Virus genome (UHGV): UHGV-0135730
DNA length: 54,321 nucleotides
Reading direction: 5' to 3' (one strand)
Source of the DNA: a virus
Positions 3,074-36,914 of the stretch are shown here, in pieces; positions within the stretch are counted from its first letter, which is position 1, and every line of letters begins with the position of its first letter. The translations under genes and the position numbers were made by a program. Under the pieces are notes generated by a model. That model was not told the DNA's origin and did not search any database. It saw only the letters and a program-made list of their open reading frames with translations.

Positions 3074-3077
3074 GATG

Positions 3078-4132: not shown

Positions 4133-4136
4133 ATTA

Positions 4137-5831: not shown

Positions 5832-6013
5832 TACTTGCCCCCGTAACGCGCAACAAGTCTTTTGCGATCAGATATTGCCTGCACCAACTTTCTTTCAAGC
5901 TCTTTAAGTGCAAGCAATTCTCGCATGTGGAAAGCCTGTATTTGTCGCACAGTCTCTAAATCATGCTCATCGCGCTGAATATCTATTTGCAGATCTTTAA
6001 TTTCGTTTTTCAT
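5831..6013 (-). CDS. Hypothetical coiled-coil protein
   Basis: 60 aa ORF between RusA and Q. Confidence 0.4.
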   Translation of the reverse strand: MKNEIKDLQIDIQRDEHDLETVRQIQAFHMRELLALKELERKLVQAISDRKRLVARYGGK

Positions 6014-6418: not shown

Positions 6419-7020
6419 GCCGCCTTTCTCCTTAAGGCGTCCAATTTAGCCTGATAGACTTTTATGATTTCCTTACATTCTTCTATCGTCCATTTGTGAG
6501 TTTCGTTGTTGTTCTCCAGCGCTACCACCCTGGCGAGGCCAATTTTTCGAATCAGTGCCGGGCGATACCCTCCGATGTTGCCGTCTAGTGTCTGGTTGCA
6601 GTGCCTGCATTGTTTATGGCAATTATCCTCGTTAAAGCGAAGATGTCCGGCGGCGGCTACCGTCCTGTAATGGCCCGCATCCCACCCGCATTGCTCACCG
6701 TAGTAAGTACCGCAAGATATACACGGCAAGCGCGCGTCACGTTCGCGAATATAGGCGTTAAATACATTTTGAACTTGTTTGATCCAATAACTACGCGGAT
6801 TTAACTGCTTCCGCTTCCGGTTGCGCTCTTCCCGCTGGCGGTCGCGGCGTTTCTTCCGCTCCATAGCCTTCATAGCCTTCTCACGGTCGCGGCATAGCTG
6901 ATCAAATTTCAGCTCTTCCAGACACTCATCACTGCACCACGTTTGATTATGGTATTTAGGCTCAAAAAAAACGCCGCAGCATTTGCAACGGCGTTTTATG
7001 GGTTTTTTAGGGTTCTGCAT
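6415..7020 (-). CDS. ninG: NinG (Rap) recombination protein
   Basis: RSYWIKQVQNVFNAYIRERDARLPCISCGT...WDAGHYRTVAAAGHLRFNE..NCHKQC matches lambda NinG; ATG at 7020. Confidence 0.85.
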   Translation of the reverse strand: MQNPKKPIKRRCKCCGVFFEPKYHNQTWCSDECLEELKFDQLCRDREKAMKAMERKKRRDRQREERNRKRKQLNPRSYWIKQVQNVFNAYIRERDARLPCISCGTYYGEQCGWDAGHYRTVAAAGHLRFNEDNCHKQCRHCNQTLDGNIGGYRPALIRKIGLARVVALENNNETHKWTIEECKEIIKVYQAKLDALRRKAA

Positions 7021-7034: not shown

Positions 7035-7211
7035 TTATTTTTGATTCTCTGTTTCGTTCAGCCTTTCGGCGTGTCCGGCCCTTAGCCAATGATCTAAACA
7101 TTCGTTGCACTCGTTACAGCCTCCTTTCTTTGTGCTGCATACATTGCACATTGCACGCATGACGCTTTCTCGTTCATAGTCGTCATGCCATTGGTAATTA
7201 TCAAAAGACAT
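7035..7211 (-). CDS. Hypothetical Cys-rich small protein (58 aa)
   Basis: Strong AGGAGGG RBS; CNVC...CNECNEC motifs suggest zinc ribbon. Confidence 0.5.
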   Translation of the reverse strand: MSFDNYQWHDDYERESVMRAMCNVCSTKKGGCNECNECLDHWLRAGHAERLNETENQK

Positions 7212-7291
7212 AATGCTCCCTCCTTTTCAGGTGATTTATACGCATTTCAGCGCTGCCGGATTTTTAAAGAGCATTTTGTTTGCTTGAAGTA

Positions 7292-7366
7292 TACAAAATG
7301 GATACATGCAAACAAGACAAAAAGCGCCATTATGTGATCCGCATCACGCAATGACGCCATTTTGTA
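7292..7366. promoter_or_regulatory. Intergenic regulatory region: divergent TACAAAATGG motifs flanking palindrome TGTGATCCGCATCACG
   Basis: TACAAAATGG at 7292-7301 (+) and 7357-7366 (-); TGTGA-N6-TCACG palindrome at 7333-7348. Confidence 0.45.
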
Positions 7367-7370
7367 AACT

Positions 7371-8153
7371 TCAGTCCGGTAAAACGCGGTTGAGCGTAGT
7401 ACGATTGATGGCCCGGTCGTTAGCCATAAATACAGCACGGGCAAAGCCGCGCGGCGTTAGTGAGCGGATCATCTTTGTTCGTTTCGTCCGGCCTCCAGTT
7501 TTAGCCCACCCTGGGTTATCACCAGAATTAAGATCTACAGCCCTGAAAAGCGGCCGTTTGAATCCGTTGCCGCACCATATGCAAGTTTTCTTCGTGTAAG
7601 CGTCGCGCGGCGGGTAAACATCCGGGAAAGCAGGATGCTTGTCGTCTTCCGGCAGGTAGCCACCGTAAGCGCACGGATTGAAGATAAAATCCGGTTTACG
7701 CCATAGCGTTGACAGTGCTCCCACCGGATTTTCCACCATCCACGGCACGTTATACATATTCGCCAGTTTTTCTACCAATTTTGCGTTATACGCCGCCTTT
7801 ACCTGGAAGTCAGGATCTTCTTTTCGCTTGTCAGCGAACCAGCGAGCGCCAGACACGGCGAGATTGTCGCATGGCGGGAAGCCCAGGATAATATCAGGCT
7901 CCGGGTAAACTGATAATTCAGGCGAGAACATCACCAGGAAGTGACTGTCAATCCACACGTTAACGTATTCAATATTCGGGTGAATGATTTTAACGCCTTC
8001 ATAATCGCCGTGATTTGCGCCGTCATAGTTGAAGCAATAGCATTTATATCCTGCTTCCGCCCAGTCTTTAACGGCGTACCCGCTGCCGTCGTACAGCGAC
8101 CACACAACCCAGTTTCTTAGCCAGTTATTTAACCAGTGTTTAGCCTTGCTCAT
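7371..8153 (-). CDS. DNA cytosine-C5 methyltransferase-like protein (divergent)
   Basis: Order of motifs resembles C5-MTases: YDGSGY (motif I-like), GFPPCDNLAVSGA (motif IV-like, PCD in place of PCQ), ENPVG (motif VI-like). Confidence 0.35.
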   Translation of the reverse strand: MSKAKHWLNNWLRNWVVWSLYDGSGYAVKDWAEAGYKCYCFNYDGANHGDYEGVKIIHPNIEYVNVWIDSHFLVMFSPELSVYPEPDIILGFPPCDNLAVSGARWFADKRKEDPDFQVKAAYNAKLVEKLANMYNVPWMVENPVGALSTLWRKPDFIFNPCAYGGYLPEDDKHPAFPDVYPPRDAYTKKTCIWCGNGFKRPLFRAVDLNSGDNPGWAKTGGRTKRTKMIRSLTPRGFARAVFMANDRAINRTTLNRVLPD

Positions 8154-8695
8154 TTTTTGCCCTCAAACGTGAAATAGCGGCGCATGATGATAGTGATCAC
8201 CGTCACCGCTGCCATTTTTGAGATAAACTGCATCGCTGATATTTCCGGCATAAACGCCATAAACGATAGCGTCGGGAAAATTAACGCATCCCCGATGGCT
8301 GAAGCTATATTTGCAGGCCAGCGTTTCGAATCGAAATCACCAGGCAAAACCCGGTAAACACCGCCAGATATAAGCGCACCGGAAACAACCGCGACGAATG
8401 ACGCTATTGCTACCATTCCTGCATCGTAATTTATTAGCACCGTGATTGCGCCAGCGGCGGCGCATGTTGTAGCCGACCATTTCAGGCCGCCGTCATATAA
8501 CAGGAAGTCACGGATCATCATATTGACACATACAGCGGCTACCGTAGTGATCGGAATTACCCACGGGCCGCAATGGTTAACAATAAGGTTGATGATCACG
8601 AAAACGGCGACATAAACGCAGGCCAATAACCTGTCAATTGTCACCTTTTTCATTTGGGTCATACCTCTTATCGCGAATAGCTTCAGATCTGTCAA
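8150..8695 (-). CDS. Multi-pass inner membrane protein, unknown function
   Basis: 181 aa with at least 5 hydrophobic helices; overlaps neighbours. Confidence 0.5.
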   Translation of the reverse strand: MTDLKLFAIRGMTQMKKVTIDRLLACVYVAVFVIINLIVNHCGPWVIPITTVAAVCVNMMIRDFLLYDGGLKWSATTCAAAGAITVLINYDAGMVAIASFVAVVSGALISGGVYRVLPGDFDSKRWPANIASAIGDALIFPTLSFMAFMPEISAMQFISKMAAVTVITIIMRRYFTFEGKK

Positions 8696-9131
8696 AACTC
8701 AAATCAAGCCGAGTTGAAATACAACCGCATTGAGGGTTAAGCATTGAATGAGGCAATCCCTTACAGCTTGTTATTGCTGCGTCATTTATTATTCCATCAT
8801 TAATATTGGCGGCAGTGAACTGCCTTTTCTTCAGTTCCTCTTCCCTATCGTTTAATATTTGCTCCGCTTTTAGTGCGCTGTAGCTAATTAAATCAACCAA
8901 TGTATCAGTAGGATCGCTTTCATTAACTAAAATGGCCTCTAAACGCGCCTCCTTAAGACAAATCAACAGATCCCACACATCAAGTGGGGTTAAACTTGCC
9001 CCCTTCTTAGCGTTGTATATAGTGGCTATTTTTGGCGCTGATTTTTCCTCTTTTCTGTCGTAGCCGTTTTGTTTACCCCTTTGCTCTATTGTTTCCGCTG
9101 CAACTCGTAATAAATCTGCTGCACTAGTCAT
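8634..9131 (-). CDS. Hypothetical protein
   Basis: Start at MTSAADLL; between Dam-like methylase and membrane protein. Confidence 0.45.
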   Translation of the reverse strand: MTSAADLLRVAAETIEQRGKQNGYDRKEEKSAPKIATIYNAKKGASLTPLDVWDLLICLKEARLEAILVNESDPTDTLVDLISYSALKAEQILNDREEELKKRQFTAANINDGIINDAAITSCKGLPHSMLNPQCGCISTRLDLSFDRSEAIRDKRYDPNEKGDN

Positions 9132-9663
9132 TTTCTGCACCTCTTGCATATAGCTCTTTACGCGTTATGTGTGTGAAAATACATTCATGTCTGCACCGTG
9201 GATGCCAGATCAAAAACAAGCTCCCCTTGTTGTTTCCGCTAACTGGCTTACCAGTCGCAGCATTTATAAAAGCCAGCCGCCCGCGCGTTATTAATCTGCA
9301 TTCGTTTGCCGTCTCAACGCCGTTCATGAACCAGCTAACAGAAACGTCAGCGGGCAACAACATTACGCAACCAATGTGATTTCGTTGATGTTCAAGCGCC
9401 GCTTTATCAACGAATGGCCCTGGGTTTGAGTATGGCGGATTCATCCAGACATATTCACCAGGCATTGCCACCGCTCCCCACGGATAATGCAGCGTGTCCA
9501 TTTCTTCGGTTATATATCGCGGGATTAATGCGTTTGCCTTGTTTGCCGCCACGTCAGCGACAAATTCAAACTCGCGGTCCATTCCTCTAAAAACTGGTTT
9601 AGGTGTCTGCCACAGGTCTTTAATTTCCTTCGGCGTGCTGCTGCCTCCAAAATCATTTTTCAT
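9124..9663 (-). CDS. DNA N6-adenine methyltransferase (phage Dam-like)
   Basis: NPPY catalytic motif (VWMNPPYSN) and size typical of phage N6A methylases. Confidence 0.7.
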   Translation of the reverse strand: MKNDFGGSSTPKEIKDLWQTPKPVFRGMDREFEFVADVAANKANALIPRYITEEMDTLHYPWGAVAMPGEYVWMNPPYSNPGPFVDKAALEHQRNHIGCVMLLPADVSVSWFMNGVETANECRLITRGRLAFINAATGKPVSGNNKGSLFLIWHPRCRHECIFTHITRKELYARGAEND

Positions 9664-12827: not shown

Positions 12828-13120
12828 TAATCGTTAATGACCTGGCCCATACGCCCGCGATATTTGCGCATACGTGGATCGACATATTCAGGCCAATGCA
12901 TATCCGGTTTTCTTTGCAGTGGGTAAAAACTTGCCTGCCAGTTGTCGAACCATATTTGCTTTGCGTACAGGTCACTAAATCTTTTCGCCATTCGTTCCGC
13001 TGCCGTGCCGCATAAAAAAAGCCCGCGATCGATTTGATCACGGGCTTCTCTTAAAACTTGCTCTTTTGTTCGCGGAATCGGTGGCGCATTAAGATAATGC
13101 GTGGATTCTGCTTTTTCCAT
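12827..13120 (-). CDS. Hypothetical protein
   Basis: Start at MEKAEST; downstream of SSB. Confidence 0.4.
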   Translation of the reverse strand: MEKAESTHYLNAPPIPRTKEQVLREARDQIDRGLFLCGTAAERMAKRFSDLYAKQIWFDNWQASFYPLQRKPDMHWPEYVDPRMRKYRGRMGQVIND

Positions 13121-13556
13121 ATTGTAACCCAATAGGAGCAAATGGAATATCGTCGTCGAGGTCCATCGGCGGCGCATTATTCCCGTTATTATTCTGCTGC
13201 TGCGGCGGCGCTTTCTGCTGCTGGCCTTGCTGCTGGCCTTGTTGGTTAACGTTCATGAATTCGAATTCGTTAACCGCCACTTCAACCGCCGTCCCCTTCG
13301 TGCCGTCGTTCCGGTCATATTGCCGAACATCCAGGCGACCGCTTACCACTATTTTTCCACCCTTACGAATATGTGGCGCTAATTTTTCCGCACGCTCGCC
13401 AAATACCAGGCAAGTGATCCACATTACCCGCTTATTATCGCCGTAGCCATTCGTTACAGCTAACGGAAAGCTACCAATAGCTTTACCGTTTTGCGTGTAG
13501 CGAACTTCCATATCATTTCCGATATTACCGCCCAGCATGATTGAATTTAAGCTCAT
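13089..13556 (-). CDS. ssb: Single-stranded DNA-binding protein
   Basis: OB-fold-like N-terminus, Gln/Gly-rich linker, C-terminal acidic tip DDDIPF. Confidence 0.85.
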   Translation of the reverse strand: MSLNSIMLGGNIGNDMEVRYTQNGKAIGSFPLAVTNGYGDNKRVMWITCLVFGERAEKLAPHIRKGGKIVVSGRLDVRQYDRNDGTKGTAVEVAVNEFEFMNVNQQGQQQGQQQKAPPQQQNNNGNNAPPMDLDDDIPFAPIGLQYGKSRIHALS

Positions 13557-14209
13557 TAACCGATCTCCCCGTTAAGCTCTTTTAAGCGAATATCATAAAC
13601 GTCTTTAGCTTTCTGTTGCTGCTCTGAATCTTTAGGAAGTAGCTTCCAGCACTTTCCGAAGATCTCGCGTAACTTGTTAGCGTCCGGCGCTTTCGCTGCC
13701 GCATCACAGAAACGCGCTAACACTTCATCAGGATTTGGCGGCGCTTTCTGCTGCTGTGGTTTCTGATTAGTTTGTTGTTTTGGTGGGTTTTTCTGTTGGC
13801 GAGGCTGCTGGCCTGTCTGCTTAGCGTATGCGTCAGTATCAGGATCTCGCGCATCGTCAATGCAGAACAATCCGTTCAACGCGTATTTACGCGCATAACT
13901 TGATGTCGCGCCAGTTAACTGGCTTGCGTCCATTCCCTTCTTGCTTTCTTCTTCCCTGGCGTAAGCAGTTACCGCAATTTCATCTTCGCCGTCGCTTAGT
14001 GTAGCCGTGGCTTTCACATAATAGCGATTGCCGATCAGGACGATTTCATCGCTAACAGTCAGCGTTATATTTTGAAGAAGTGGCTTAACCGCCTCCAAAA
14101 TATCCTCCGCCGACCTGTAATTGTACCCACCAAAATTATTACGCTGATTTTTCGGCGCGTTCAACGTTTGTTGAATCGTCCACAGCTTTTTGTGTAACTC
14201 TGTTTTCAC
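13556..14209 (-). CDS. erf: ERF-family single-strand annealing recombinase
   Basis: N-terminal FGGYNYRSAEDILEAVKPLL and TGATSSYARKYALNGLF typical of ERF; GTG start with AGGAG RBS. Confidence 0.75.
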   Translation of the reverse strand: MKTELHKKLWTIQQTLNAPKNQRNNFGGYNYRSAEDILEAVKPLLQNITLTVSDEIVLIGNRYYVKATATLSDGEDEIAVTAYAREEESKKGMDASQLTGATSSYARKYALNGLFCIDDARDPDTDAYAKQTGQQPRQQKNPPKQQTNQKPQQQKAPPNPDEVLARFCDAAAKAPDANKLREIFGKCWKLLPKDSEQQQKAKDVYDIRLKELNGEIG

Positions 14210-14358: not shown

Positions 14359-14649
14359 TTAATGGTAACGGACTTTATCCAGGGGTTTCTCCCCTAAATG
14401 GCGTGGTTGCGTTGCGTGGTAGTAGCTGCCACTTTCATTTTCCGTATACCATTTTACTGATCCTTTGCGACGTTCTTTTTTGCCATCTGGCTTGCATCTT
14501 TCGTCACTTGCCATTCGAATGGCTTTTTCCACATTGTCAGTTTTATTAATTGCAGGTGATGATTTTCTTTCGTTTTCTCTTTTTATCCTTCTGCGTTCCC
14601 TGGCATTTATTTTGCTATCACATTTACCATATATAATTGTAACGCTCAT
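14359..14649 (-). CDS. Arg-rich basic protein, candidate N-like antiterminator
   Basis: First gene after the pL-like promoter and a 340-nt leader; N-terminal arginine-rich motif NARERRRIKRENERK resembles N-family ARM. Confidence 0.4.
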   Translation of the reverse strand: MSVTIIYGKCDSKINARERRRIKRENERKSSPAINKTDNVEKAIRMASDERCKPDGKKERRKGSVKWYTENESGSYYHATQPRHLGEKPLDKVRYH

Positions 14650-14705: not shown

Positions 14706-14743
14706 GCCGCACTTCCAGCGGCTGACCAGATTGTTAATGAGCG
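14706..14743 (-). promoter_or_regulatory. Candidate nutL (boxA-like plus boxB-like hairpin)
   Basis: Minus strand CGCTCATTA (boxA-like) then 12 nt then hairpin GCCGC-UGGAAGU-GCGGC, upstream of the N-like gene. Confidence 0.35.
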
Positions 14744-14997
14744 GCTTAACATCTTTCAACTAATCCCGCAATCATCGCCGTTCCCGGCGTGACCTTGCTC
14801 ACTCCAAGCAAGCTGACTCGTCGCCTTGCGTGCGGTTTCGTGGGGGATGTAACGCTTTAAACACCCCATGCGCCTTGTTATCAGTGCCGCTTTCGGTCCC
14901 CCATCGGGGAGTTACTCCACGGTTGACAAGGTGTTAAGCCTGATTTTTAAAGTGCCAGGAAGTTGCTTTTGTTGCCTGCTCCCTTCCTTTGATTCGC

Positions 14998-15040
14998 AAT
15001 ATACGCCCCGTAAAACACCGAGTCAATCCATTTTGTATAC
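14998..15040 (-). promoter_or_regulatory. Early leftward promoter (pL-like)
   Basis: Minus strand GTATACAAAATGG-A-TTGACT-17-TATATT. Confidence 0.6.
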
Positions 15041-15107
15041 TTTTTTAAAATATTTTATATACTATTGATATTTAAACAATAAATAGCGTTTTCTGTTTAC
15101 GTTTTGG

Positions 15108-15145
15108 TGTTTTTTCGAACAAAGAAAAGCCGCCACCAGGCGGCT
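15108..15145 (-). terminator. Rho-independent terminator after repressor gene
   Basis: Hairpin AGCCGCC-ACCA-GGCGGCT followed by T-rich run on minus strand. Confidence 0.6.
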
Positions 15146-15150: not shown

Positions 15151-15798
15151 TTATGGCAGGTTTACGATCTTCGCATCAACAACCACGCCAATGATTTTTG
15201 ACTCTGGATTCATAGGGATCGGCGGATACAACGGATTCAGTGAACGCAAAAGTTTTCGGCCTCCATCAATAATCAACTGTTTAAACGTAGGTATCTGCCC
15301 TTCCTCCAGTTGTGCTATAACAAGTTTTCCGTCAATAGCTGGCGCGTGCGGGTCAACGAGTATCATAGTCCCCGCCGGGATGCTTAACCCCTGCGGTGCG
15401 TTCATTGATTCACCTTTAGCAACCAGCCAATAACTATCATCCGAACAAATAACGCTAGTAGCAACGTGTGGCAATGTTGATCGGTGTGTGCCTTCCATAT
15501 TGTTTGCTACATCCTTCCAGTCAACAACCGGGTAACTGCCTAAATCACGCGGTGGCGCTCCCGACAACGTGTTAGAAACAGAATCATCAATGACCATTCC
15601 GTCATGAGTAACAGTAAATTGCCGACGCCCAAGCGCCCGCATGATACGCGCAATATCTTCAAGATTCGGCTCACGGCGACCGTTCAGCCAGTGAGAAAGG
15701 CCGCCTTTGGTTATCCCCATAAGATCAGCCAATGAATCCTGGCTCATGCCCTGCGCCCGCATGAGTTGTTTTGCTAAGTCATACCATTTTGTTTTCAT
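15151..15798 (-). CDS. CI-like prophage repressor (HTH plus S24 LexA-like peptidase)
   Basis: N-terminal HTH (QDSLADLMGITKGGLSHWLNG), C-terminal S24 domain with GESM serine motif. Confidence 0.85.
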   Translation of the reverse strand: MKTKWYDLAKQLMRAQGMSQDSLADLMGITKGGLSHWLNGRREPNLEDIARIMRALGRRQFTVTHDGMVIDDSVSNTLSGAPPRDLGSYPVVDWKDVANNMEGTHRSTLPHVATSVICSDDSYWLVAKGESMNAPQGLSIPAGTMILVDPHAPAIDGKLVIAQLEEGQIPTFKQLIIDGGRKLLRSLNPLYPPIPMNPESKIIGVVVDAKIVNLP

Positions 15799-15857
15799 GT
15801 CGCTACCCTATAACCTAAAAAATTTTGATGCAAGTCACAAAACGTGTTTTTCAAGCC

Positions 15858-15885
15858 TTGACCTGTTAGCGCCATTATGTAAACT
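15858..15885 (+). promoter_or_regulatory. Early rightward promoter (pR-like) within operator region
   Basis: TTGACC-16-TAAACT; flanked by TTGATGCAAG / CTTGCAATGATGCAAGG operator-like repeats. Confidence 0.45.
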
Positions 15886-15961
15886 TGCTGACAAGGTAAA
15901 GCCATACTTGCAATGATGCAAGGAAAAAGATAAGGGAAAGCACAAAAAGGCCGACGCCTTA

Positions 15962-15995
15962 AGCTCTTTAAAAATCCGGTGTCGCTGCGAAGCGA
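15962..15995 (+). promoter_or_regulatory. Candidate nutR (boxA-like plus short hairpin)
   Basis: AGCTCTTTA followed by hairpin TCGC-TGCGAA-GCGA in the rightward leader. Confidence 0.25.
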
Positions 15996-16103
15996 AAAAC
16001 AAATATCACGCAACGGCGGGATCTGTTGAGCGGTCAGTCACTGCTATCTAATGCTAATGGGATGCCCGCCCGCGCGTTCACTCTAACCATAGGAGAAAAG
16101 AAT

Positions 16104-16349
16104 ATGTATTACGTGCGCAAGGCTTTTGATATTCGCCTGAATAACAATGATCCGGCGCAAAAACTCATCTTAATTGCACTGGCAACAAAGGCCGGATGCA
16201 ACGGCAAAAGCGAAGTAACGCCAGAAGAGATCGCGGAAATGTGCGAAATTTCGTTACGCGATACTATCTCTGCACTGCATCAACTGAAAAGAAGCGGCCT
16301 AATCAGCCAGCTGCCAGGTTTCTTCTGTGTTTATCAGTTAATGTTTTAG
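16104..16349 (+). CDS. HTH protein, paralog of replication-initiator N-terminal domain (possible Cro/cII-like regulator)
   Basis: First rightward gene, AGGAGA RBS; LILIALATKAGCNGKSEVTPEEIAEMCEISLRDTISALHQLKRSGLI parallels N-terminus of 16356-17363 product. Confidence 0.55.
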   Translation: MYYVRKAFDIRLNNNDPAQKLILIALATKAGCNGKSEVTPEEIAEMCEISLRDTISALHQLKRSGLISQLPGFFCVYQLMF

Positions 16350-16355
16350 TTCGTC

Positions 16356-17363
16356 ATGAGGTTAATGCTTATGAGTATGCGGCTAATGGTAGAGGTCTTC
16401 CATACTGAGGTTGGCGACCCAATGCACAAACTGGTGCTGTTGAAGTTGGCTGATAACGCTAATGATAACGGCGAGTGTTACCCTTCTTACCATCACATAG
16501 CAAAGGAGTGTGAGATCAGCAAAAGAACAGCTATGAGGGCTGTAGACTCACTTTGTGAAAAAGGGTTGTTGATTAAACAACCAAGATATTTAATCGGAGG
16601 AAAAGAGCAAACTAGTAATTTCTATGTAATAGTCCTTCCGTCATTGCATGGTAGTGTCACTATGACACCGGGGGTAGTGACACAGAGTCACCAGGGTAGT
16701 GACACAGAGTCACCGGGGGTAGTGTCACAGAGTCACCCTAACCAGTCATATATAACCAGTAAAGAGAACATTAAAAACAATACACTCCGTGTATTGGAAA
16801 AAGACCGGTCTATCAGCGAAGAAGATCGGGAGGTTAATCTGGCGGCATTGCGTTGCCTGGCCTTCTACAACGACAAGGCAGGATGCAAATGTCGTGATGC
16901 AAAGCCATTCGTAGAACTACTGACAGAAACAAAAACACGTAAAGCGTATACGGAGGATGAAATCACATTAGTGATTGAGTGGGCTTTAACACAATGGCGT
17001 AGCCGTGGTGGAACACCTAAGCCTATAAACATTTGCCGGGTAACTAAATTTGATGGGTATCTGGCTGACGCTGAAAAATGGCACAAACTGTCAGCCACTG
17101 CAAACGCTGCCGACGTAGTGGAGGCATTTAACAGCACGTTTGATGGCCTGTTGCCACCTGCCGAACTGGATCGGGATCTTGAACGCAAGATTTATGCGTT
17201 CACTGACTACCTGAAAGACAAAAGCATCAACGGCTTTGTCGCCTACTTTGAAACGTTCAAAAACACGGCTTCAGATTTTTACTTCGGCAATGGCTTCACA
17301 GCGACACTTGATTTCCTGCTTAAACCAAAAACGCTACGTGATACACGATGTGGCGCTCTTTGA
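16356..17363 (+). CDS. Replication initiator (lambda O-like, winged-HTH N-terminus)
   Basis: HTH replication-protein-like N-terminus; iterons within coding sequence as in lambda O; start may be ATG 16371. Confidence 0.7.
   Translation: MRLMLMSMRLMVEVFHTEVGDPMHKLVLLKLADNANDNGECYPSYHHIAKECEISKRTAMRAVDSLCEKGLLIKQPRYLIGGKEQTSNFYVIVLPSLHGSVTMTPGVVTQSHQGSDTESPGVVSQSHPNQSYITSKENIKNNTLRVLEKDRSISEEDREVNLAALRCLAFYNDKAGCKCRDAKPFVELLTETKTRKAYTEDEITLVIEWALTQWRSRGGTPKPINICRVTKFDGYLADAEKWHKLSATANAADVVEAFNSTFDGLLPPAELDRDLERKIYAFTDYLKDKSINGFVAYFETFKNTASDFYFGNGFTATLDFLLKPKTLRDTRCGAL
16650..16737. repeat. Origin iterons (4 direct repeats, about 22-bp period) inside initiator gene
   Basis: GGTAGTGACACAGAGTCACC at 16673, 16695, 16718 plus degenerate copy at 16650; each contains GTGAC/GTCAC inverted half-sites; AT-rich stretch follows. 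Confidence 0.8.
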
Positions 17364-17496
17364 CCAACCACGATCTGCAAAAATCCAAAATTACCCACAA
17401 AACAACCTCACCGGCGAGCTAAAACACGCATGGTGCTACGACTGCATATCTTTAGCGGTCTAGCTCGTTATAGAGCGTTTTAGAGAGGATTTTAAA

Positions 17497-17598
17497 ATGG
17501 ACGGTAAACACGTTTTCGCCCTGGCCTTTGCCATCGCTGCTGCAATCGCTGTTAACGTCGCTTTGTTCGGCGGTTTGTTCCTTCTTATCAATCCATAA
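17497..17598 (+). CDS. Small hydrophobic peptide (33 aa)
   Basis: MDGKHVFALAFAIAAAIAVNVALFGGLFLLINP; GAGAGGA RBS; intergenic between initiator and antirepressor. Confidence 0.4.
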   Translation: MDGKHVFALAFAIAAAIAVNVALFGGLFLLINP

Positions 17599-17730
17599 CC
17601 TTCATACCAGTCTGTAAATCAAAAATTAGCCACCTGAAAGCGCCTCTGACGCAATAAGACACTGCAACCTGTGCAAACGGGTTACGCGGTGGGATTTTTG
17701 CGTTGTAGCGCGTTTTACGGAGAAATTACA

Positions 17731-18474
17731 ATGTCTGAGTTGATGTGTTTTAATTTTGATGACAATAAAATCACTGCTGTAATTTATGATGGTAAACCTG
17801 CTTTTGTTGCAATGGATGTGGCGCGGGCGCTTGGGTACGCTACGCCGCAAGATGCCATTAAAAAGCATTGTAAGTCATTGATAAAAATAAAATGTCGTGA
17901 AATGCGACATTTGGGTTTCGAACCAATCCCGCAAGGCGTAACGCTAATCCATGAATCAGATGTTTACCGCCTGGTGATGCGATCAAAAGTAGAATTGGCT
18001 GAGCGCTTCCAGGATTGGGTGTGCGAGGATGTTCTCCCTGCTTTGCGTGAAAATGGACATTACGGCTTTAAACCAGCTTTGCCGGATTTCACTGACCCAG
18101 TTGTTGCGGCTCGCGCATGGGCGGATGAGGTAGAGCAAAAACTATTAGCACAGAAGGAAGTTGATCGTCTGGCGCTGGAAAACAAGGAATTAGCGCCAAA
18201 AGCGGCTGTCTGTGATGCGATTGTAAGAAACGAACAGCATCGCAACGCGACACAGGTTGCCAAGCCTTTGGGTATGACTGCTACGCAACTCAACAAAAAA
18301 CTTGAACAGGTCGACGTCTACGATACGCGGATTAAGCGAGGCGGTCGTATGTTCAAGCAGTGGTTCGTAGACAAAGGCTACGGAGTGGTAAAATGTTCGG
18401 CTGAAGGTTACGTCCAATCACTATTTACTGCTAAGGGTCAGATTTGGGTGTCTGAACTTTTTGCGTGTAAGTAG
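17731..18474 (+). CDS. Antirepressor (Bro-N domain plus C-terminal KilA-C-like region)
   Basis: Bro-N-like N-terminus (FNFDDNKITAVIYDGKPAFVAMDVARALGY); GGAG RBS. Confidence 0.65.
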   Translation: MSELMCFNFDDNKITAVIYDGKPAFVAMDVARALGYATPQDAIKKHCKSLIKIKCREMRHLGFEPIPQGVTLIHESDVYRLVMRSKVELAERFQDWVCEDVLPALRENGHYGFKPALPDFTDPVVAARAWADEVEQKLLAQKEVDRLALENKELAPKAAVCDAIVRNEQHRNATQVAKPLGMTATQLNKKLEQVDVYDTRIKRGGRMFKQWFVDKGYGVVKCSAEGYVQSLFTAKGQIWVSELFACK

Positions 18475-18507
18475 GTATACATTTTGTTAACTGGAGGGAT
18501 TAACATT

Positions 18508-19626
18508 ATGTCGCAAAGAAAAATCAGCGATGAGCAATTGATCGCTGAATACAACAACGGTTTAACGTACAAACAGATTGCTGAGAAGTACGGCATGTCT
18601 AAACGCAATGTCGAGCGCCTGGGCGCAAAACTGGCGAAACGTGGTTTATTATCAACACGCCGCGCGCCTGGTTTTGGCGTCAATGGCGAGTCGTTGCTAG
18701 TCGATAAAAACGGCAATGTGATCATGCGCTGGATTAAAACAGCCCGTGACCGCGACGAAATGGAACAGCTAATGGAAGCGGCCCGCGACGCTTTCACGGA
18801 TGAAATACCACGCGCGGAGGCTGTGCCAGTGCCTGAAATTGATTTTCAAAAAAGCCTGGCACTTTACCCGGTATTTGACCTGCATATCGGGGCGCTTGCT
18901 CATAAAGCTGAATGCGGAGAGAGCTACGATACTGGGATCGCTGAGCGCGTGTTGAATGACTTCTTTGACTACGCTGTTGGCGCTGCTCCGATGTCTGAAA
19001 AAGCAGTACTGCTCCTCGGTGGCGATCTACTTCATTCTGACGGTATGGTCCCGGTGACGCCAACAAGCGGGCACATTCTTGATCAAGATAGTCGCTACGC
19101 AAAACTTGTTTATGTGGCGATCCGGTCTGTCCGGCGGGCGGTAGGAAAGATGTTGTTAAATCATAAAGATGTTGAAATCCAGGTGTTATCAGGCAATCAC
19201 GATCAGTCGGGCATGATTTGGCTACGTGCGGCGCTGGCGGCTTTTTACGAAGATGAACCGCGCGTGACGGTTGATGTATCACCTGCTATTGTCCACCACA
19301 CACAGTACGGTAAAACATTCCTTGCATATCATCACGGTCATACTATCAAAAAACCTGAAAATTTGTTGTCTGCCTGCGTATCTGACTGGCGTGAGGATTT
19401 CGGCAAGTCGGCGGCTGTTTACGCTCACACTGGACATCTACATCACCAATCTGTTGTTGAAACATCATTGGGGATCGTTGAACACCACGGCACGTTAGCT
19501 GGCAAAGACGCATATTCGACTAATGGCGGCTGGCGGTCGCGGCGGCTGGCAGCGGTGATTATTTACAGCCCGGATCATGGGGAAATTGGGCGCTTTGTTT
19601 ATTACCCTGAATATTCCATTTTGTAA
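18508..19626 (+). CDS. HTH domain fused to calcineurin-like metallophosphoesterase
   Basis: N-terminal HTH (LTYKQIAEKYGMSKRNVERL); phosphoesterase motifs DLH, GGDLLH, GNHD, HHGH, GHLHH in canonical order. Confidence 0.6.
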   Translation: MSQRKISDEQLIAEYNNGLTYKQIAEKYGMSKRNVERLGAKLAKRGLLSTRRAPGFGVNGESLLVDKNGNVIMRWIKTARDRDEMEQLMEAARDAFTDEIPRAEAVPVPEIDFQKSLALYPVFDLHIGALAHKAECGESYDTGIAERVLNDFFDYAVGAAPMSEKAVLLLGGDLLHSDGMVPVTPTSGHILDQDSRYAKLVYVAIRSVRRAVGKMLLNHKDVEIQVLSGNHDQSGMIWLRAALAAFYEDEPRVTVDVSPAIVHHTQYGKTFLAYHHGHTIKKPENLLSACVSDWREDFGKSAAVYAHTGHLHHQSVVETSLGIVEHHGTLAGKDAYSTNGGWRSRRLAAVIIYSPDHGEIGRFVYYPEYSIL

Positions 19627-19644
19627 ACCGGAGGTAATGACATA

Positions 19645-21060
19645 ATGGTAACTGAGCAAATAAACTCACTACGGCAGGAACGTGAAGCGTCAGTTATCGG
19701 CGGGCTGCTGTTAGGTGGCCTCACTCCTAACGCGCAAGATGTTCTCGCCACTCTGGATCCTGAAGTGTTCACGATCTCGCTTTACAAACGTGCGTTTGAA
19801 GTTATCCGGGCGCAAGCCAGAAACAGGAATCTTATCGACGCGTTATTGGTTGGCGATGAGATTGGGAATGAAAACTTTGTTCCTCTGATGCAAACGGCGC
19901 GATCGTGTCCTTCTGCCGCCAACCTGAAGGGATACGCACAGCTACTACGTGAAGAGCACCAGCGGCGGCAGATGTTGGAACTCATCGACGATATGCGCTA
20001 CAAGCTGGAAACGGGGACGCTTGAAGTCGTCAAAGAGACGATGAAAGATTTTGATTCCCGGTACTCAAAATTAAAAGTAACTAAAGACAAGATCATTCCT
20101 GTTCTGTTGCGCGATGCGGTACAGGAATACACGGAGGTTTTAAGCAAGCGCATGGAATGCGGTGTCAATTCTGACAACATCAAAACAGGGATAGAACCAC
20201 TCGACGAAATGTTAGGCGGCATTAACGCTACTGATTTGGTGCTTCTCGCCGGACGTCCTGGGTCTGGTAAATCTGCGTTGGCGCTTGCAATTGCCCGCGA
20301 GGCTGCCGAACGCCCTTACCCTGGCGGCGAAGGTCAGCGGGTAGGCGTTTTGCTGTTTACGCTTGAAATGTCACTCGATCAGATGACTGAGCGGGCTATA
20401 GCTGGCGCTGGCAATTTATCAACTGACTGCCTGCGCAATCCGGTAAAACTTGATGATGAGGGGTGGGCGCATGTCGGCCAGGGTATGAGCGCACTTGCTA
20501 ATCTTGATGTGTGGATCGTTGACGCGTCGCAGTTAACGGTTGAGGAAATACGCGCAACAACGGAACGCATGAAGCAGGATCACCCGAACCTGGGTATGGT
20601 AATGATTGACTATATCGGGTTAATGAAGCTGGCTAAAGCCGAACGTCACGATCTCGCCGTGGGGCAATTATCGTGGTCGTTAAAGATGATGGCTAAAGAA
20701 TTGCGCGTACCAGTGTTGGCGCTGGCGCAATTGTCACGCCGAGTTGAGGAACGACCAAACAAGCGCCCTAATAATTCTGATCTTCGTGATTCTGGCAACC
20801 TTGAGCAAGATGCCGACAGGATAATCATGGTTTACCGCGATGGATATTACGACGAACAGTCTGTTGCCCGCGAATATATGGAAATCATTGTGTCAAAAAA
20901 CCGTCATGGTAAGTCTGGAACTGTTTACCAGCGGTTTGATGACAACGGTAATATCTTGCCATGCGACCAGGCGCGCGCAGCCGCAGCGTGCATTCAGTCA
21001 ATGAATCATCGCACAAGCCGTTTTAACCAACGAAACAATCAGAATAACGCATCTTTTTAA
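19645..21060 (+). CDS. DnaB-family replicative helicase
   Basis: Walker A GRPGSGKS, RecA-like C-terminal domain; 471 aa. Confidence 0.85.
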   Translation: MVTEQINSLRQEREASVIGGLLLGGLTPNAQDVLATLDPEVFTISLYKRAFEVIRAQARNRNLIDALLVGDEIGNENFVPLMQTARSCPSAANLKGYAQLLREEHQRRQMLELIDDMRYKLETGTLEVVKETMKDFDSRYSKLKVTKDKIIPVLLRDAVQEYTEVLSKRMECGVNSDNIKTGIEPLDEMLGGINATDLVLLAGRPGSGKSALALAIAREAAERPYPGGEGQRVGVLLFTLEMSLDQMTERAIAGAGNLSTDCLRNPVKLDDEGWAHVGQGMSALANLDVWIVDASQLTVEEIRATTERMKQDHPNLGMVMIDYIGLMKLAKAERHDLAVGQLSWSLKMMAKELRVPVLALAQLSRRVEERPNKRPNNSDLRDSGNLEQDADRIIMVYRDGYYDEQSVAREYMEIIVSKNRHGKSGTVYQRFDDNGNILPCDQARAAAACIQSMNHRTSRFNQRNNQNNASF

Positions 21061-21136
21061 TCAATATTAGCAAACAGCTTGCCGGAAAGTTTACCGCTTT
21101 CTGGTGGCTGTTATCGCGTTTTAAACGAGGCTAAAA

Positions 21137-21694
21137 ATGAGCGCTGAAATTGAAACAAAAATTATCAATATCCTTGAACTTGATGGCATCGCAACAATGC
21201 ACCAGTTACGCCAGAAAACAGGGTTATTGGCTTGGTATGATAAGGACGGAATCATGCCTGAGACAATTAAACACTTAATAAAAAACGGCATCGTCGAGCG
21301 CGTGTATACATGTTTTGGACGCCGCCGCCGCCTGCTGGGTTATCGCATTAAACAGTTATATGCTGAACGTCGTGAGCGTGTTGCGTCGTTATTTGGTGAC
21401 TACAGCGTTAAAAAACGTATGCGCGACATTAGCGCTGAGACTGGTATCCCGTGGAATTATCTTTCTCGTACTCTTCGCCTAATGGTGATTGATGAAACAC
21501 TTTGCGTTGATCCAAATAGGCACGGCGTTAACTTTTACTCACTGTTTAAACCTGGGCGATTCGGTCACGCTAATGATTTGGCGTTTGACTTTGACAGCCG
21601 CCTGAGCGAATACCGGAAAAATAACGGCCTGCTACCTGATAAACCAGTGTTTGAGATTGAAAAACTTAACGGTGAAACGGGGTTGGAATTATGA
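21137..21694 (+). CDS. Hypothetical protein
   Basis: 185 aa ORF downstream of helicase. Confidence 0.5.
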   Translation: MSAEIETKIINILELDGIATMHQLRQKTGLLAWYDKDGIMPETIKHLIKNGIVERVYTCFGRRRRLLGYRIKQLYAERRERVASLFGDYSVKKRMRDISAETGIPWNYLSRTLRLMVIDETLCVDPNRHGVNFYSLFKPGRFGHANDLAFDFDSRLSEYRKNNGLLPDKPVFEIEKLNGETGLEL

Positions 21695-21897
21695 GACGGG
21701 TAATTTTTTATTCAGTTGAAACGTTTATTGACGAATCTCACTTTAAATTCACACGCGATCCTTGCGGAACGATGGTTTATACGCCTCCACTAATGCGCAA
21801 GTATAAGCACGTAAAATTTAACCGTGCTTTTGTGCCGATTCGTTACGCTTTGCAGGCGTTGCGCGGTGAATTACGAAACACAATGCGTATTGTGTAA
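21691..21897 (+). CDS. Hypothetical protein
   Basis: 68 aa ORF, ATGA overlap. Confidence 0.4.
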   Translation: MRRVIFYSVETFIDESHFKFTRDPCGTMVYTPPLMRKYKHVKFNRAFVPIRYALQALRGELRNTMRIV

Positions 21898-21907
21898 GGG
21901 GGAGATC

Positions 21908-22105
21908 ATGAACAGGGAATTGGATTTGACCGTGGAAGACTTAAGCACGATTGCGGAATACATGCGCGGCGGCGATCCTGATAAGCCTGTTGTTGTTGAT
22001 ATGAGGTACTTAAAAAGCGCTTTTATGACAAGCTCGCGCCTAATTTCTTTGCGGGCGATCATGTATGCGCGGGCACAGTGGAAAAATAGTAACGGTGTAT
22101 CATGA
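21908..22105 (+). CDS. Hypothetical protein
   Basis: Start at MNRELD with GGGGGAG RBS. Confidence 0.4.
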   Translation: MNRELDLTVEDLSTIAEYMRGGDPDKPVVVDMRYLKSAFMTSSRLISLRAIMYARAQWKNSNGVS

Positions 22106-22533
22106 GGCAAATAAGATTTGAAATAGTAAACGACGCCGTAAAAGAAAACGCTATCAGGCAGATAAGAGAGATCCAGCCTGATAGCAAAAGCCCGCTGGTA
22201 ATTACCATCCGTGAGAAGACACGCTCACTGAGTCAAAATGCGTTGCTTTGGGCGCTATTAACAGACGTTAGCGATCAGGTTAATTGGTACGGAAAAAAGC
22301 TGTCGCCGGAAGATTGGAAAGCGGTATTTACTGCCGGGCTTAAGAAATATGGCGTTGTCCCTAACCTGGATAAATCAGGTTTTGTTGTGCTGGGTACGTC
22401 AACCAGCCGGATGAGTAAGGCTGAATTTAGCGAATTAATCGAACTGATCTACTCGTTCGGCGCTGAACATGGTGTTCAGTGGTCTGGCGATACGAAGTTA
22501 AACGAGGAATTTATAAAACGCTGGGGGCAATAA
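22102..22533 (+). CDS. ninB: NinB (Orf-family recombination mediator)
   Basis: 143 aa; SLSQNALLWA motif characteristic of lambda NinB. Confidence 0.75.
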   Translation: MRQIRFEIVNDAVKENAIRQIREIQPDSKSPLVITIREKTRSLSQNALLWALLTDVSDQVNWYGKKLSPEDWKAVFTAGLKKYGVVPNLDKSGFVVLGTSTSRMSKAEFSELIELIYSFGAEHGVQWSGDTKLNEEFIKRWGQ

Positions 22534-22709
22534 TGGTTCGTTACTACATGGCTAAACCTACAGGCATTTTGTATAAGATTGATGGCGAATATGTTTATTA
22601 CTTTCACAATCAGGCGCGTGAGTGGCGATTATGTCACGCGCACTTTCAGCACGAAATAGAAAACCATCCTGAATATTTTATCAAAGTTGACAATGTAACG
22701 GTGGCGTAA
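22533..22709 (+). CDS. Hypothetical protein
   Basis: 58 aa ORF with overlapping stop-start. Confidence 0.35.
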   Translation: MVRYYMAKPTGILYKIDGEYVYYFHNQAREWRLCHAHFQHEIENHPEYFIKVDNVTVA

Positions 22710-22723
22710 TTGAGGATAAGAAA

Positions 22724-23383
22724 ATGAATAAACTTAAAGTAATTGGCGTGATTAGCCATCGTACTAACCCTGAGTGTTACCCATCGTTTGAGGTAACAAC
22801 ATGCCGCACAGAATATAATTTTGGATCATGCTATTTAATGGGCATTCGCGCTGACACTGGCGGCACTTATTCTGTTATGGCTGCAAGCTGGAAATTTGAA
22901 AAATACGATGATTTATCGAATAAGGATGATGACGGCATGAATAAAGAAAGTGAAGTTGTTGATGAATTAATCGAAGACGAACGCCGTGACTGCGAAACGA
23001 AACAAGAAAAAACGGAATGGAAGCCAGGAGAAAAGCCGCCGTGCGGCGTGTGGCTTGAATGTTATTATCCTGATGGTTATCTAGTTGGGATTGTAATGTT
23101 TAAATTTGTCGGTGATAAATTCGGTGTGTACACTGAAAAAGGCAGTAAACAGCAAGAACATACTATTGATTGGGGTTTTTGTAATTATTTTTTATATGTT
23201 GACCCGAAAGAAAAAGCACTTGCTGAAATCGCGTTTGCACTTGCTATCAAAGTTATGGGTGAAGACGCGGCAAAAGAGATTGACTTTAACCATGACAATG
23301 ATTTTTCGTGCGATTATCGCAATATGGCGCAAGCTATTATTGATGGATGTATCGGACACGTTGAATACACGGGGAAAAGATAA
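22724..23383 (+). CDS. Hypothetical protein (AT-rich, possible cargo)
   Basis: 219 aa ORF; lower GC. Confidence 0.5.
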   Translation: MNKLKVIGVISHRTNPECYPSFEVTTCRTEYNFGSCYLMGIRADTGGTYSVMAASWKFEKYDDLSNKDDDGMNKESEVVDELIEDERRDCETKQEKTEWKPGEKPPCGVWLECYYPDGYLVGIVMFKFVGDKFGVYTEKGSKQQEHTIDWGFCNYFLYVDPKEKALAEIAFALAIKVMGEDAAKEIDFNHDNDFSCDYRNMAQAIIDGCIGHVEYTGKR

Positions 23384-23613
23384 TGGATAAAACGGCAACA
23401 ATTCTTCTTAGTCGCCCTGCCATCTGCCGTATGCTTGGGGGAATTAGCAGGGGAACGTTCTATTCATGGCGTAAAAAGTGGGAGGAAAACGGAACTCCAT
23501 TCCCGGACCCTGTTGATGTGTTGGGGACCGGGAGGGGCGTCATGTACCGCTATCAGGATGTAATGCGGTTCTTTGATAAGATCGGATTAACGCCAGCCAG
23601 GGATAAGACGTAA
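23383..23613 (+). CDS. AlpA-family DNA-binding protein / excisionase candidate
   Basis: Short HTH protein (ICRMLGGISRGTFYSWRKK) adjacent to integrase; 3' end overlaps int 3' end convergently. Confidence 0.6.
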   Translation: MDKTATILLSRPAICRMLGGISRGTFYSWRKKWEENGTPFPDPVDVLGTGRGVMYRYQDVMRFFDKIGLTPARDKT

Positions 23614-24767
23614 TCCGCAAATTTATTTAACGCCTCCTTTTGTTCATCAAGATAATCATATTTGTCGTACACTGCCAGTATTCCTCTGAGTGAATGGCCT
23701 AATACCTTTTCCGCGATATGTACCGGAACACCTATAGCTGAAAGGTGTGTACGGCACGTCCTGCGGAGGTCGTGACAGGACCATGATTTGCCTCCCATCC
23801 TTTTACGCACGAAGATTGCAGCTACTTTTATCACTGATGCGTTTACTGGCTTGTTGCCGCCGTTAATCACTGGCGGGAACACATAATCATACTCATGGGA
23901 GGCTAATACCTCCCTGAGCATTTTTATCGACAAATCTGATAATCCCCGCCTGATTTCACTTCTTGTCTTCGCCACTGCCGCCGGGACGGTCCATACCCCG
24001 TTATCCAGGTCGAGGTGTTCCCTTCTCATTTTCTGCAACTCCCCCACCCTGCACCCAGTTAGCAATAATAGCCTTAATGCTATCTTGTTTTGACGGTAGA
24101 TCTGCGAATCATCCACCGTTCGCCAGAAATGGCCTATTTCATCGCATGATAAATAACGCTCGCCAACCGCATAATTTTCGCCTACGTCAACAACCCTGAT
24201 ATTGTTTATCGCTGTACTGGTCATTAGCCCGCGCCGGATAGCGCTGTTTACAACAATCTTCATTCGCTTAAGTATCAGCCCAGCCGTAACCGCGTGGCCC
24301 GCCGCAGTGATCTCGCCAAATATATCCATCCATTGCTTCGTGCTGACATCATCGGCAATATACTCACCGAATTTATCGACAACGTGGCGCTTAAGCGCGC
24401 TCCTGACGTCATTATATGCAACCAGCTTAATAACGTTCGGCAGGGATAAATAGTCACTCACAATGGCGCTTATTGTTAATTTGCCACGCTCAATATTTAT
24501 CGCTTGCTTTACTGAAACAGTCGGGTTCTTCCCCTTCGCTAATAGCTCTTTGTATTCTGCCACCGCGTAGCGTGCATCTTTCAATGTCATGTTGCCATAA
24601 TCGCCAATCTTCATCCTTACAGGTTTACCGTTGAACCTGTACCTGAACTGGAAAATGATTTTCCCCTTCGGGCTTATCCTGGCAGACAAGCCATCGCGAT
24701 CCGCTATCTCGTTCGGGCCGTCATATGGCTTGTTTGCTATTGCGCGTAATTTCGTATCCGTCAGCAT
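23553..24767 (-). CDS. int: Tyrosine integrase (P4-like)
   Basis: N-terminal arm-binding-like domain, C-terminal catalytic region with HDLRRT...HxxxH...Y. Confidence 0.85.
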   Translation of the reverse strand: MLTDTKLRAIANKPYDGPNEIADRDGLSARISPKGKIIFQFRYRFNGKPVRMKIGDYGNMTLKDARYAVAEYKELLAKGKNPTVSVKQAINIERGKLTISAIVSDYLSLPNVIKLVAYNDVRSALKRHVVDKFGEYIADDVSTKQWMDIFGEITAAGHAVTAGLILKRMKIVVNSAIRRGLMTSTAINNIRVVDVGENYAVGERYLSCDEIGHFWRTVDDSQIYRQNKIALRLLLLTGCRVGELQKMRREHLDLDNGVWTVPAAVAKTRSEIRRGLSDLSIKMLREVLASHEYDYVFPPVINGGNKPVNASVIKVAAIFVRKRMGGKSWSCHDLRRTCRTHLSAIGVPVHIAEKVLGHSLRGILAVYDKYDYLDEQKEALNKFADYVLSLAGVNPILSKNRITS

Positions 24768-24785
24768 TCTGATACCTCTTTTTTT

Positions 24786-25046
24786 TGGTCACGATTTGGT
24801 ACACATTTTTATCTGAACGGATATTAACACCATCGAACGGATTTAAACACACGACATGATGATTTATGCGTAACTTAGTGAATTTAAATGGTATTTTTTA
24901 TCAACCGTGAACGAGTATGAACAGGATTGAACACCACTAATCGTTACTGTCTGGAATGGTTAGCGCCGTGAATAATCACTTATAAAACAGTATGTTACAG
25001 TGCTTTTGCTTTTGGTTTTTGATATTTGGTCACAATTTGGTACACA
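24786..25046. other. attP-like region with arm-type direct repeats
   Basis: 20-bp direct repeats TGGTCAC(G/A)ATTTGGTACACA at 24786 and 25027; three GAAC(G/A)GAT(A/T)T(A/G)AACAC repeats at 24815, 24835, 24919; intergenic next to int. Confidence 0.5.
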
Positions 25047-25073
25047 AAAAGAAACGAGGCGTAAGCCTCGTTT
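25044..25073 (-). terminator. Rho-independent terminator after tail-fibre gene
   Basis: Hairpin CGAGG-CGTAAG-CCTCG followed on minus strand by TTTCTTTTTGT. Confidence 0.6.
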
Positions 25074-25103
25074 CGCGCGGCGATGTTCTTCGCACATCAC
25101 CTC

Positions 25104-36084: not shown

Positions 36085-36100
36085 GTACTCAAAAGGAAGC

Positions 36101-36286: not shown

Positions 36287-36298
36287 GAGGTTAACGAA

Positions 36299-36646: not shown

Positions 36647-36655
36647 GGCGGCAAC

Positions 36656-36904: not shown

Positions 36905-36914
36905 GTGACAGATT

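Follow-up and report, generated by a model that had tools for sequence, protein, structure and literature searches.

Here, we examine how the early genes are laid out, and how they may be controlled, in UHGV virus genome UHGV-0135730, a viral DNA of 54,321 bp (the window, by which we mean this whole stretch), where two arms of early genes run in opposite directions on either side of a CI-type repressor region. The window is a complete phage genome in arbitrary circular permutation: an endolysin open reading frame (ORF) runs unbroken across the junction of its end and its start (54222-54321 joined to 1-372, minus strand), and the leftward genes therefore continue around the circle; as the window ends fall within this gene, it is missed by ORF lists of the linear window. 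No tRNA genes were found in the window. The long ORFs occupy the minus strand from 15798 down to 363, and again as the integrase gene int (23553-24767) and from 25104 to 54221, and the plus strand from 16026 to 23613. The GC skew is negative over 1-15 kb and positive over 16-24 kb, its sign flipping with the strand switch. With > and < marking opposite strands, the gene order reads int> xis-like< orf219< ninB< dnaB< exonuclease< O< / cI> N> erf> ssb> dam> MTase> ninG> rusA> Q>, where MTase is a second methyltransferase gene. All 43 related loci, namely 42 IMG/VR loci around the N-like gene plus phage mEp021, share this order and orientation (tblastn, up to 17 marker genes per locus), and the annotated records of MagusPhagus and mEp554 show the same order. 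The preliminary description of the window, made without database searches, had claimed that the replication arm converges on int, that the N-like gene, the recombination genes and Q ride the opposite arm and are read in the same direction as the late genes, and that the nin genes are split, ninB standing apart from ninG and rusA; each of these holds in the window and in 43 of 43 loci, ninB being separated from ninF as well, and nearly all its gene labels were confirmed by hidden Markov model searches.

The immunity region and the leftward arm, called here the N arm, comprise:

15151-15798, minus strand: CI-type repressor gene (Rep021 ortholog; HTH_3 and Peptidase_S24 domains)
15128-15145, minus strand: terminator t1, directly after cI (7-bp G+C-rich stem, then a T run; invariant in relatives)
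14998-15026, minus strand: putative early promoter of the N arm, TTGACT-17-TATATT (10/12 consensus match; both hexamers invariant in 6 relatives)
14706-14742, minus strand: nutR1, boxA GCTCATTAACAATC and boxB hairpin GCCGCUGGAAGUGCGGC (copy kept in all aligned relatives)
14359-14649, minus strand: N-like antiterminator, ortholog of Gp17 (phrog_271, E 2.5e-11; 88% identical to mEp021 gp17)
13556-14209, minus strand: Erf recombinase (PF04404, E 7e-42)
13089-13556, minus strand: SSB (PF00436, E 2e-23)
9124-9663, minus strand: Dam methylase (PF05869, E 3e-51)
7371-8153, minus strand: second DNA methyltransferase (phrog_757, E 2e-86)
7317-7365, minus strand: t4 hairpin after the methylase gene (-24 kcal/mol, z -4.1; the predicted TERM_4 of mEp021)
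7288-7315, minus strand: hypothetical internal promoter, TTGTTT-16-TATACT, between the t4 hairpin and the nutR2 boxA
7240-7272, minus strand: nutR2, boxA GCTCTTTAAAAATC and boxB GCGCUGAAAUGCGU (in the 160-bp gap before ninF; invariant in relatives)
7035-7211, minus strand: ninF
6415-7020 (likely extent), minus strand: ninG (PF05766, E 1e-67; 53% identical to lambda NinG)
6017-6418, minus strand: rusA (PF05866, E 1e-14)
5831-6013, minus strand: orf60, an ORF of 60 codons
5103-5831, minus strand: Q (PF03589, E 7e-32; full-length identity to lambda Q 35%)

The repressor is 96% identical to that of mEp021, 91-98% across 41 loci and 33% to lambda cI, and t1 is TERM_1 in the mEp021 annotation (MH706966). 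The N-like protein carries an arginine-rich motif (R17, R19, R20, R21, R24). Two ORFs lie between the Dam and second methyltransferase genes (block 7371-9663, minus strand), and the arm also carries an anti-RecBCD gene, listed between SSB and the methylases. Terminator-like hairpins occur at 12567-12548, 10296-10272, 7365-7317 and 6990-6972; the last, inside ninG, has a predicted energy of -17.1 kcal/mol and is followed by U8. From ninG through rusA and orf60 to Q, each gene overlaps or adjoins the next, so that a promoter immediately before Q would have to lie within coding sequence. Three nut sites of the form boxA-CGG/TGG-boxB are present (15963-15995, plus strand; 14706-14742 and 7240-7272, minus strand), and the boxA of nutR2 (7272-7259) is an exact 14-mer common to nutL. 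Their positions match those published for nutL, nutR1 and nutR2 of mEp021, and in the group as a whole nutL lies by the repressor gene, nutR1 before gp17 and nutR2 after the methylase gene (PMC11893012). In mEp021, Gp17 acts on nutR1, nutR2 and nutL, and t1, t2 and t5 terminate experimentally (PMC11893012). An insert of about 215 bp (roughly 14745-14960, minus strand) separates the early promoter from nutR1 in the window, in mEp021 and in the related locus L002, and is missing from mEp554 and from loci L029 and L043; at 14942-14955 it contains another boxA-like sequence, GCACTTTAAAAATC, and its counterpart in mEp021 is the tiny gp16 ORF.

The rightward (replication) arm and the integrase region that it meets comprise:

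15858-15885, plus strand: putative replication-arm promoter, TTGACC-16-TAAACT (TTGA and TAAACT invariant in 6 relatives)
15963-15995, plus strand: nutL, boxA GCTCTTTAAAAATC and boxB UCGCUGCGAAGCGA, a hairpin with a GCGA loop (position as published for nutL, PMC11893012)
16104-16349, plus strand: 81-residue winged helix-turn-helix (wHTH) protein at the "cro position" (true ATG at 16104; paralog of the N-terminal DNA-binding domain of the O-like protein)
16356-17363, plus strand: O-like replication initiator (phrog_428/8540/345)
17671-18474, plus strand: antirepressor with Bro-N and KilAC domains
18484-19626, plus strand: "DNA repair exonuclease" with an N-terminal helix-turn-helix (HTH) fusion (phrog_704, E 5e-142)
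19645-21060, plus strand: DnaB helicase
within 21137-23383, plus strand: 185-residue MarR/Ren-like protein, then small ORFs
22102-22533, plus strand: NinB (E 3e-47; 54% identical to lambda NinB)
22724-23383, plus strand: 219-residue protein (orf219) with no assigned function
23383-23613, plus strand: 76-residue excisionase-like HTH protein, the last gene of the arm (3' end overlapping int by 61 bp)
23553-24767, minus strand: tyrosine integrase of type I, dgcM/ydaM site (Arm-DNA-bind_3 and Phage_integrase; 96% identical to the mEp021 integrase)
25051-25074, minus strand: strong terminator after the tail-fibre gene (10-bp stem)

Four iterons of 19-22 bp lie at 16650-16736, inside the O-like gene. 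The wHTH protein had been called a paralog in the preliminary description, rightly so: over 59 residues it shows 37% identity (E 3e-10) with the N-terminal part of the O-like protein. Its gene is found in all 43 relatives, mostly just 33-40% identical to the window copy, compared with 91-98% for cI. A true Cro that shares operators with a conserved CI should itself be conserved; thus, the wHTH protein may not be a Cro analog and may instead be linked to the initiator or to the replication origin. The 307-bp gap between the O-like and antirepressor genes contains an ORF of 33 codons (17498-17599, plus strand) with a good ribosome-binding site, encoding a very hydrophobic peptide (MDGKHVFALAFAIAAAIAVNVALFGGLFLLINP). 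As for the gene that had been labelled an HTH-phosphoesterase, its HTH part stands, and the phosphoesterase label has the PHROG annotation as its only source: no Pfam metallophosphoesterase match was obtained at E<=0.01, and a sequence search of the PDB returned marginal HTH matches only. The replication arm yielded no convincing intrinsic terminator, and for this reason no target is assigned to nutL.

At its far end the replication arm meets int, and the two genes, once described as head to head, in fact stand tail to tail, their 3' ends overlapping by those 61 bp. Beyond int, the homology with prophages of complete Escherichia coli chromosomes stops at about 24955 (query position 2956), beside dgcM (ydaM), which places the phage attachment site (attP) between the tail genes and int. 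The int gene and the late genes lie at opposite ends of the prophage. The earlier proposal that the leftward genes run on through lysis and structural genes to int is therefore correct as to circular continuity but not as to a single operon reaching int, since the terminator and attP intervene and int is not simply the end of a late operon. The leftward strand as a whole comprises the cI unit ending at t1, the early promoter, several terminators, a candidate late promoter before the holin gene, and the terminator and attP before int. Two 21-bp direct repeats (24784-24804 and 25025-25045, minus strand; GTGTACCAAAT(C/T)GTGACCAAA, matching at 20 of 21 positions) lie 241 bp apart, flank the attP crossover (about 24955) and are probably arm-type sites of the integrase.

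Downstream of Q, the leftward strand continues through about 17 small ORFs (690-5103, minus strand), a highly variable delayed-early region, to the block before the holin gene:

663-635, minus strand: candidate Q-dependent late promoter, TTGTGG-17-TAAAAT
628-622, minus strand: -10-like TAACAAT
607-588, minus strand: terminator t5, a G+C hairpin then a U run (t5 of mEp021 experimentally shown, PMC11893012)
363-563, minus strand: holin gene (ATG at 563)
53733-54221: spanin ORFs

From 650 to the holin start this block is nearly invariant across 4 phages, and the ORF upstream of it varies. Because Q is a homolog of lambda Q, we read the block as the equivalent of PR'/tR', which would put Q 4.4 kb from its putative target, compared with about 100 bp in lambda. 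Further on, the minus-strand tail operon is broken at 36056-38628 by two islands of plus-strand small ORFs flanking a minus-strand ORF of 117 residues (37258-37611), and the GC skew is locally positive there; these islands probably hold morons, among them the lipoprotein and superinfection-exclusion genes that mEpimmI phages are reported to carry.

The window belongs to a group that is already known. Megablast with three segments covering most of it gave mEp554, mEp515, mEp021, mEp044, mEp010, mEp013 and MagusPhagus as the closest phages (86-93% DNA identity over 62-98% per segment); against mEp021 the three segments show 80-98% coverage and 88-93% identity, with 17 marker genes in the same order. 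The mEpimmI phages, with mEp021 as archetype, were described from 48 genomes as "Nus-dependent non-lambdoid" coliphages (Negrete-Mendez et al. 2025, PMC11893012), and mEp021 itself has been in GenBank since 2018 (MH706966). Their genomes have a conserved architecture, a CI-type repressor and the N-like antiterminator Gp17 acting on three nut sites; they form a single immunity group, with Rep021-type cI about 96% similar within it; arginines 17, 19, 20 and 24 of Gp17 are conserved across the group and arginine 21 in most members; they integrate at ydaM, abgT or mppA with a matching integrase type; and the isolates show Nus-dependent growth, siphovirus morphology and no hybrids with lambda (PMC11893012). 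The window has this cI type, the Gp17 arginines within their arginine-rich motif, the three nut sites, the terminators, the same gene order and orientation, and the integrase type with its dgcM/ydaM attachment site. It is thus the complete genome of a temperate siphophage of the mEpimmI group, and the module order seen in it is the known, conserved layout of that group. From the window, mEp021 differs at the allele level only, carrying a zinc-ribbon gene and an HNH endonuclease gene where the window has the Bro-N/KilAC antirepressor; the small ORFs between Q and holin number about 17 in the window, 8 in mEp021 and about 25 in MagusPhagus, and the tail-fibre and moron content is not that of mEp021. 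Among 5,426 complete E. coli genomes, 278 match part of the ninB-int segment (query 22000-24955). The best prophage matches are 91-95% identical and end beside dgcM; judged by these best matches, relatives of the window prophage thus appear to be present in some of these genomes.

Searches for the same arrangement outside mEpimmI found none: a scan of one genome per species with the N-like protein returned no relative; tblastn of a phage collection with this protein recovered only the seven known mEp-type phages, and the 42 IMG/VR loci all belong to the group. Klebsiella phage Sin4 and the BEK phages were considered as relatives and set aside: they have only the phrog_704 exonuclease gene in common with the window, and Sin4 is a virulent, T1-like member of the Drexlerviridae with an unrelated architecture.

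A comparison of synteny with lambda (NC_001416), the check that the preliminary description had named, shows the departure that it claimed. The two phages are alike in having cI between two outward early promoters and co-oriented with N, antitermination by N, nut sites and Nus factors, four iterons inside O, a promoter/terminator unit before the lysis genes as the Q target (a putative one in the window), and a tyrosine integrase with attP adjoining, as well as homologous NinB, NinF, NinG and Q proteins (35-54% identical). Conversely, in lambda O-P are followed on the cro arm by the nin genes and Q, and the N arm closes with int-xis, whereas in the window it is the N arm that leads to Q, the replication arm having the xis-like gene as its last; int of the window points the same way as the late genes and converges on the xis-like gene. 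The window has three nut sites, lambda two (one per early promoter); Erf, SSB and DnaB take the place of Exo, Bet and P; and the structural genes show no DNA similarity to those of lambda. With respect to the functional definition of a lambdoid phage, the window has N- and Q-type antitermination and cI-type immunity, but not the lambda gene order that permits viable hybrids.

P22, a podovirus, carries Erf, the anti-RecBCD protein Abc, a DnaB-type helicase, an O-like initiator, nin genes, the N-like gp24 and the Q-like gp23. Its order is the canonical one of lambda: PL reads erf and gene 24 in the direction of xis-int, and PR reads genes 18, 12, nin and 23 in the direction of the late genes. 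Taking the P22 side from textbook knowledge, the gene content of its arms is closer to that of the window than lambda's is, but its order is unlike that of the window. Judged from the gene maps, the simplest description is that the segment comprising the recombination genes, N, cI, the cro-position gene, O, the helicase gene and ninB would be inverted relative to the lambda/P22 map, with int also reversed. On one side this segment is flanked by ninF-ninG-rusA-Q and the late genes, and on the other by xis/int-attP.

Overall, we consider it very probable that the window, as an mEpimmI phage, is best explained by a lambda-like regulatory cascade with flipped arms. Gene identities, order, orientation, conservation, sequence elements and attP come from the present analysis; antitermination, Nus dependence, repressor function and ydaM integration are taken from the literature; and the promoters, the Q target site, the role of the excisionase and the dependence of Q on read-through are what we infer from sequence. 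Upon loss of the repressor both early promoters would fire, and the N-like protein, together with host Nus factors, would load at nutR1, nutR2 and nutL. Polymerase so modified could pass t2, t3, t4 and the hairpin inside ninG, and reach Q; Q would then allow polymerase from the promoter before the holin gene to read through t5 into the late genes. The late path after Q would thus lead over the small ORFs and the promoter/terminator unit to the lysis, head and tail genes. The excisionase would be expressed from the N-dependent replication arm, and int would need a promoter of its own between attP and its start codon. The preliminary description had likewise made late-gene activation depend on leftward early transcription, an interpretation supported by the packed ninG-Q genes, the hairpins, the nut sites and the published work on Gp17, with which expression of Q by read-through is consistent. 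Several points weigh against this cascade. The promoters are all consensus or conservation calls, and a promoter scan finds overall no more sites than in shuffled sequence. The -35 of the late promoter (TTGTGG, 663-658) falls outside the conserved block and is not kept in MagusPhagus. Furthermore, a second nut site 7.5 kb into an N-modified unit is hard to explain with one promoter and favours an internal one.

This last point leads to an alternative according to which there are three promoters for three nut sites: ninF-ninG-rusA-Q would form a separate early unit transcribed from the candidate promoter at 7315-7288, and Q would need N only in trans, for the ninG hairpin. The candidate promoter keeps the TTGT of its -35 and its entire -10 block unchanged, amid flanks and a spacer that vary (35 distinct sequences among 45 loci), and its layout is that of the replication-arm promoter, with a 16-nt spacer and CCATTnTG directly before TAWACT. 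Terminator, promoter and nut site succeed one another as they do where one operon ends and the next begins, lambda has a single nut site per early promoter, and the ninG hairpin with its U8 gives nutR2 a target. Conversely, the -35 matches only 3 of 6 consensus positions, the scan tool did not call the site, and the authors of the mEp021 work reportedly interpreted nutR2, in a 2023 abstract, as reached by read-through from nutR1.

Control of this third unit would run through a 15-bp element, CCATTTTGTAWACTT, found by k-mer comparison of the two promoter regions. Six copies occur at <=1 mismatch, all intergenic or regulatory (15028-15042, 15872-15886, 7357-7371 and 2343-2357 on the plus strand; 7287-7301 and 37695-37709 on the minus strand). 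The form CCATTTTGTATACTT embeds the -10 of the candidate promoter; it is exact at 7287-7301 and 15028-15042, the other four copies having 1-2 changes, and at <=3 mismatches it gives 14 matches compared with 2.2 expected. The copy at 15028-15042 abuts the -35 of the N-arm promoter and that at 15872-15886 covers the -10 of the replication-arm promoter. All relatives scanned have the copies in syntenic positions. Half of the six copies, on the other hand, face away from genes, and instead of a promoter core the motif could be an UP-like element or a site bound by a protein. As a candidate operator or promoter core, the element suggests a third early promoter, with one factor acting at each of the three regulatory regions. 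Within the small-ORF region, two inverted copies of the element form the hairpin at 2312-2357. A search for operators through generic direct and inverted repeats and the palindrome ACAAAACGTGTTTT yielded nothing above chance, and the accessible papers contain no mapped promoters or operators for mEpimmI and no description of the element. Taken together, a separate Q unit controlled through the element is possible, but less likely than not. Even with an internal promoter, Q would probably need N from the same arm because of the strong hairpin and U8 inside ninG. That the early circuit consists of three promoter-nut units, in which immunity-type control would act on Q directly, through a third operator region lying 7.7 kb from cI, seems to us rather doubtful; if true, this third promoter/operator could be how the family made the flipped order workable.

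In the flipped-arm cascade, the replication arm is also taken to end in an excisionase gene. A second alternative denies this: the rightward arm would not be a single N-dependent operon ending in an excisionase, the 76-residue protein would be an AlpA-type regulator or a small terminase-like or transposase-like HTH protein with no part in excision, and the genes past ninB would have their own promoter. The Pfam matches of this protein are in fact HTH_23, HTH_28 and HTH_29, with no excisionase family among them; the match to Xis_Gifsy_1 is weak, 17 bits against a cutoff of 60; and a 190-bp gap separates ninB from the 219-residue ORF. The label alpA given to the gene in the preliminary description was not upheld, no match to Phage_AlpA (PF05930) being found at E<=0.01, and we class it as an excisionase-type HTH. 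In agreement, its sequence class tracks the integrase type in 22 of 22 loci, which that of the neighbouring 219-residue gene does not, and the 3' overlap with int is present in all relatives checked. The best fold match in the PDB is likewise an excisionase, that of GIsul2 (8c3t, probability 0.94), yet with E 0.17 and from a single-sequence AlphaFold model of predicted local confidence (pLDDT) 78, so that the match is suggestive only. In the gap between ninB and orf219, neither a terminator-like site nor a consensus promoter was called. The overlap with int, the covariation with the integrase and the fold match suggest that the protein behaves like an excisionase, and we regard the alternative as improbable.

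A third explanation, raised since a single inversion would turn the lambda order into the observed one, attributes the layout of this one sequence to an error of assembly or orientation, or else to a recent inversion private to a phage whose order is otherwise that of lambda; we found no point in its support and give it practically no credence, for it is refuted by the same order and orientation in 43 of 43 independent loci, which include IMG/VR contigs and six sequenced isolates, by its recurrence in prophages of complete E. coli chromosomes with the expected dgcM junction, and by a GC skew that changes sign where the strand changes.

The finding re-describes a known plan, in GenBank since 2018, with its antitermination characterised in 2023 and its genomics in 2025, and in itself adds little that is new; the accessible papers show the arrangement but neither state the inversion relationship nor map promoters or operators. 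Its interest lies in a natural experiment, in which lambda/P22-type parts (cI, N/nut, O with its origin, NinB, NinG and Q) function with the early region reversed. As a consequence of this reversal N and Q come to share an arm, while xis and int lose their coupling and face each other. Should the 15-bp element and the internal promoter be real, they would explain the need for a third nut site and would identify operators as yet unmapped, in a group of phages that reportedly equals the lambdoid phages in frequency in the human gut.

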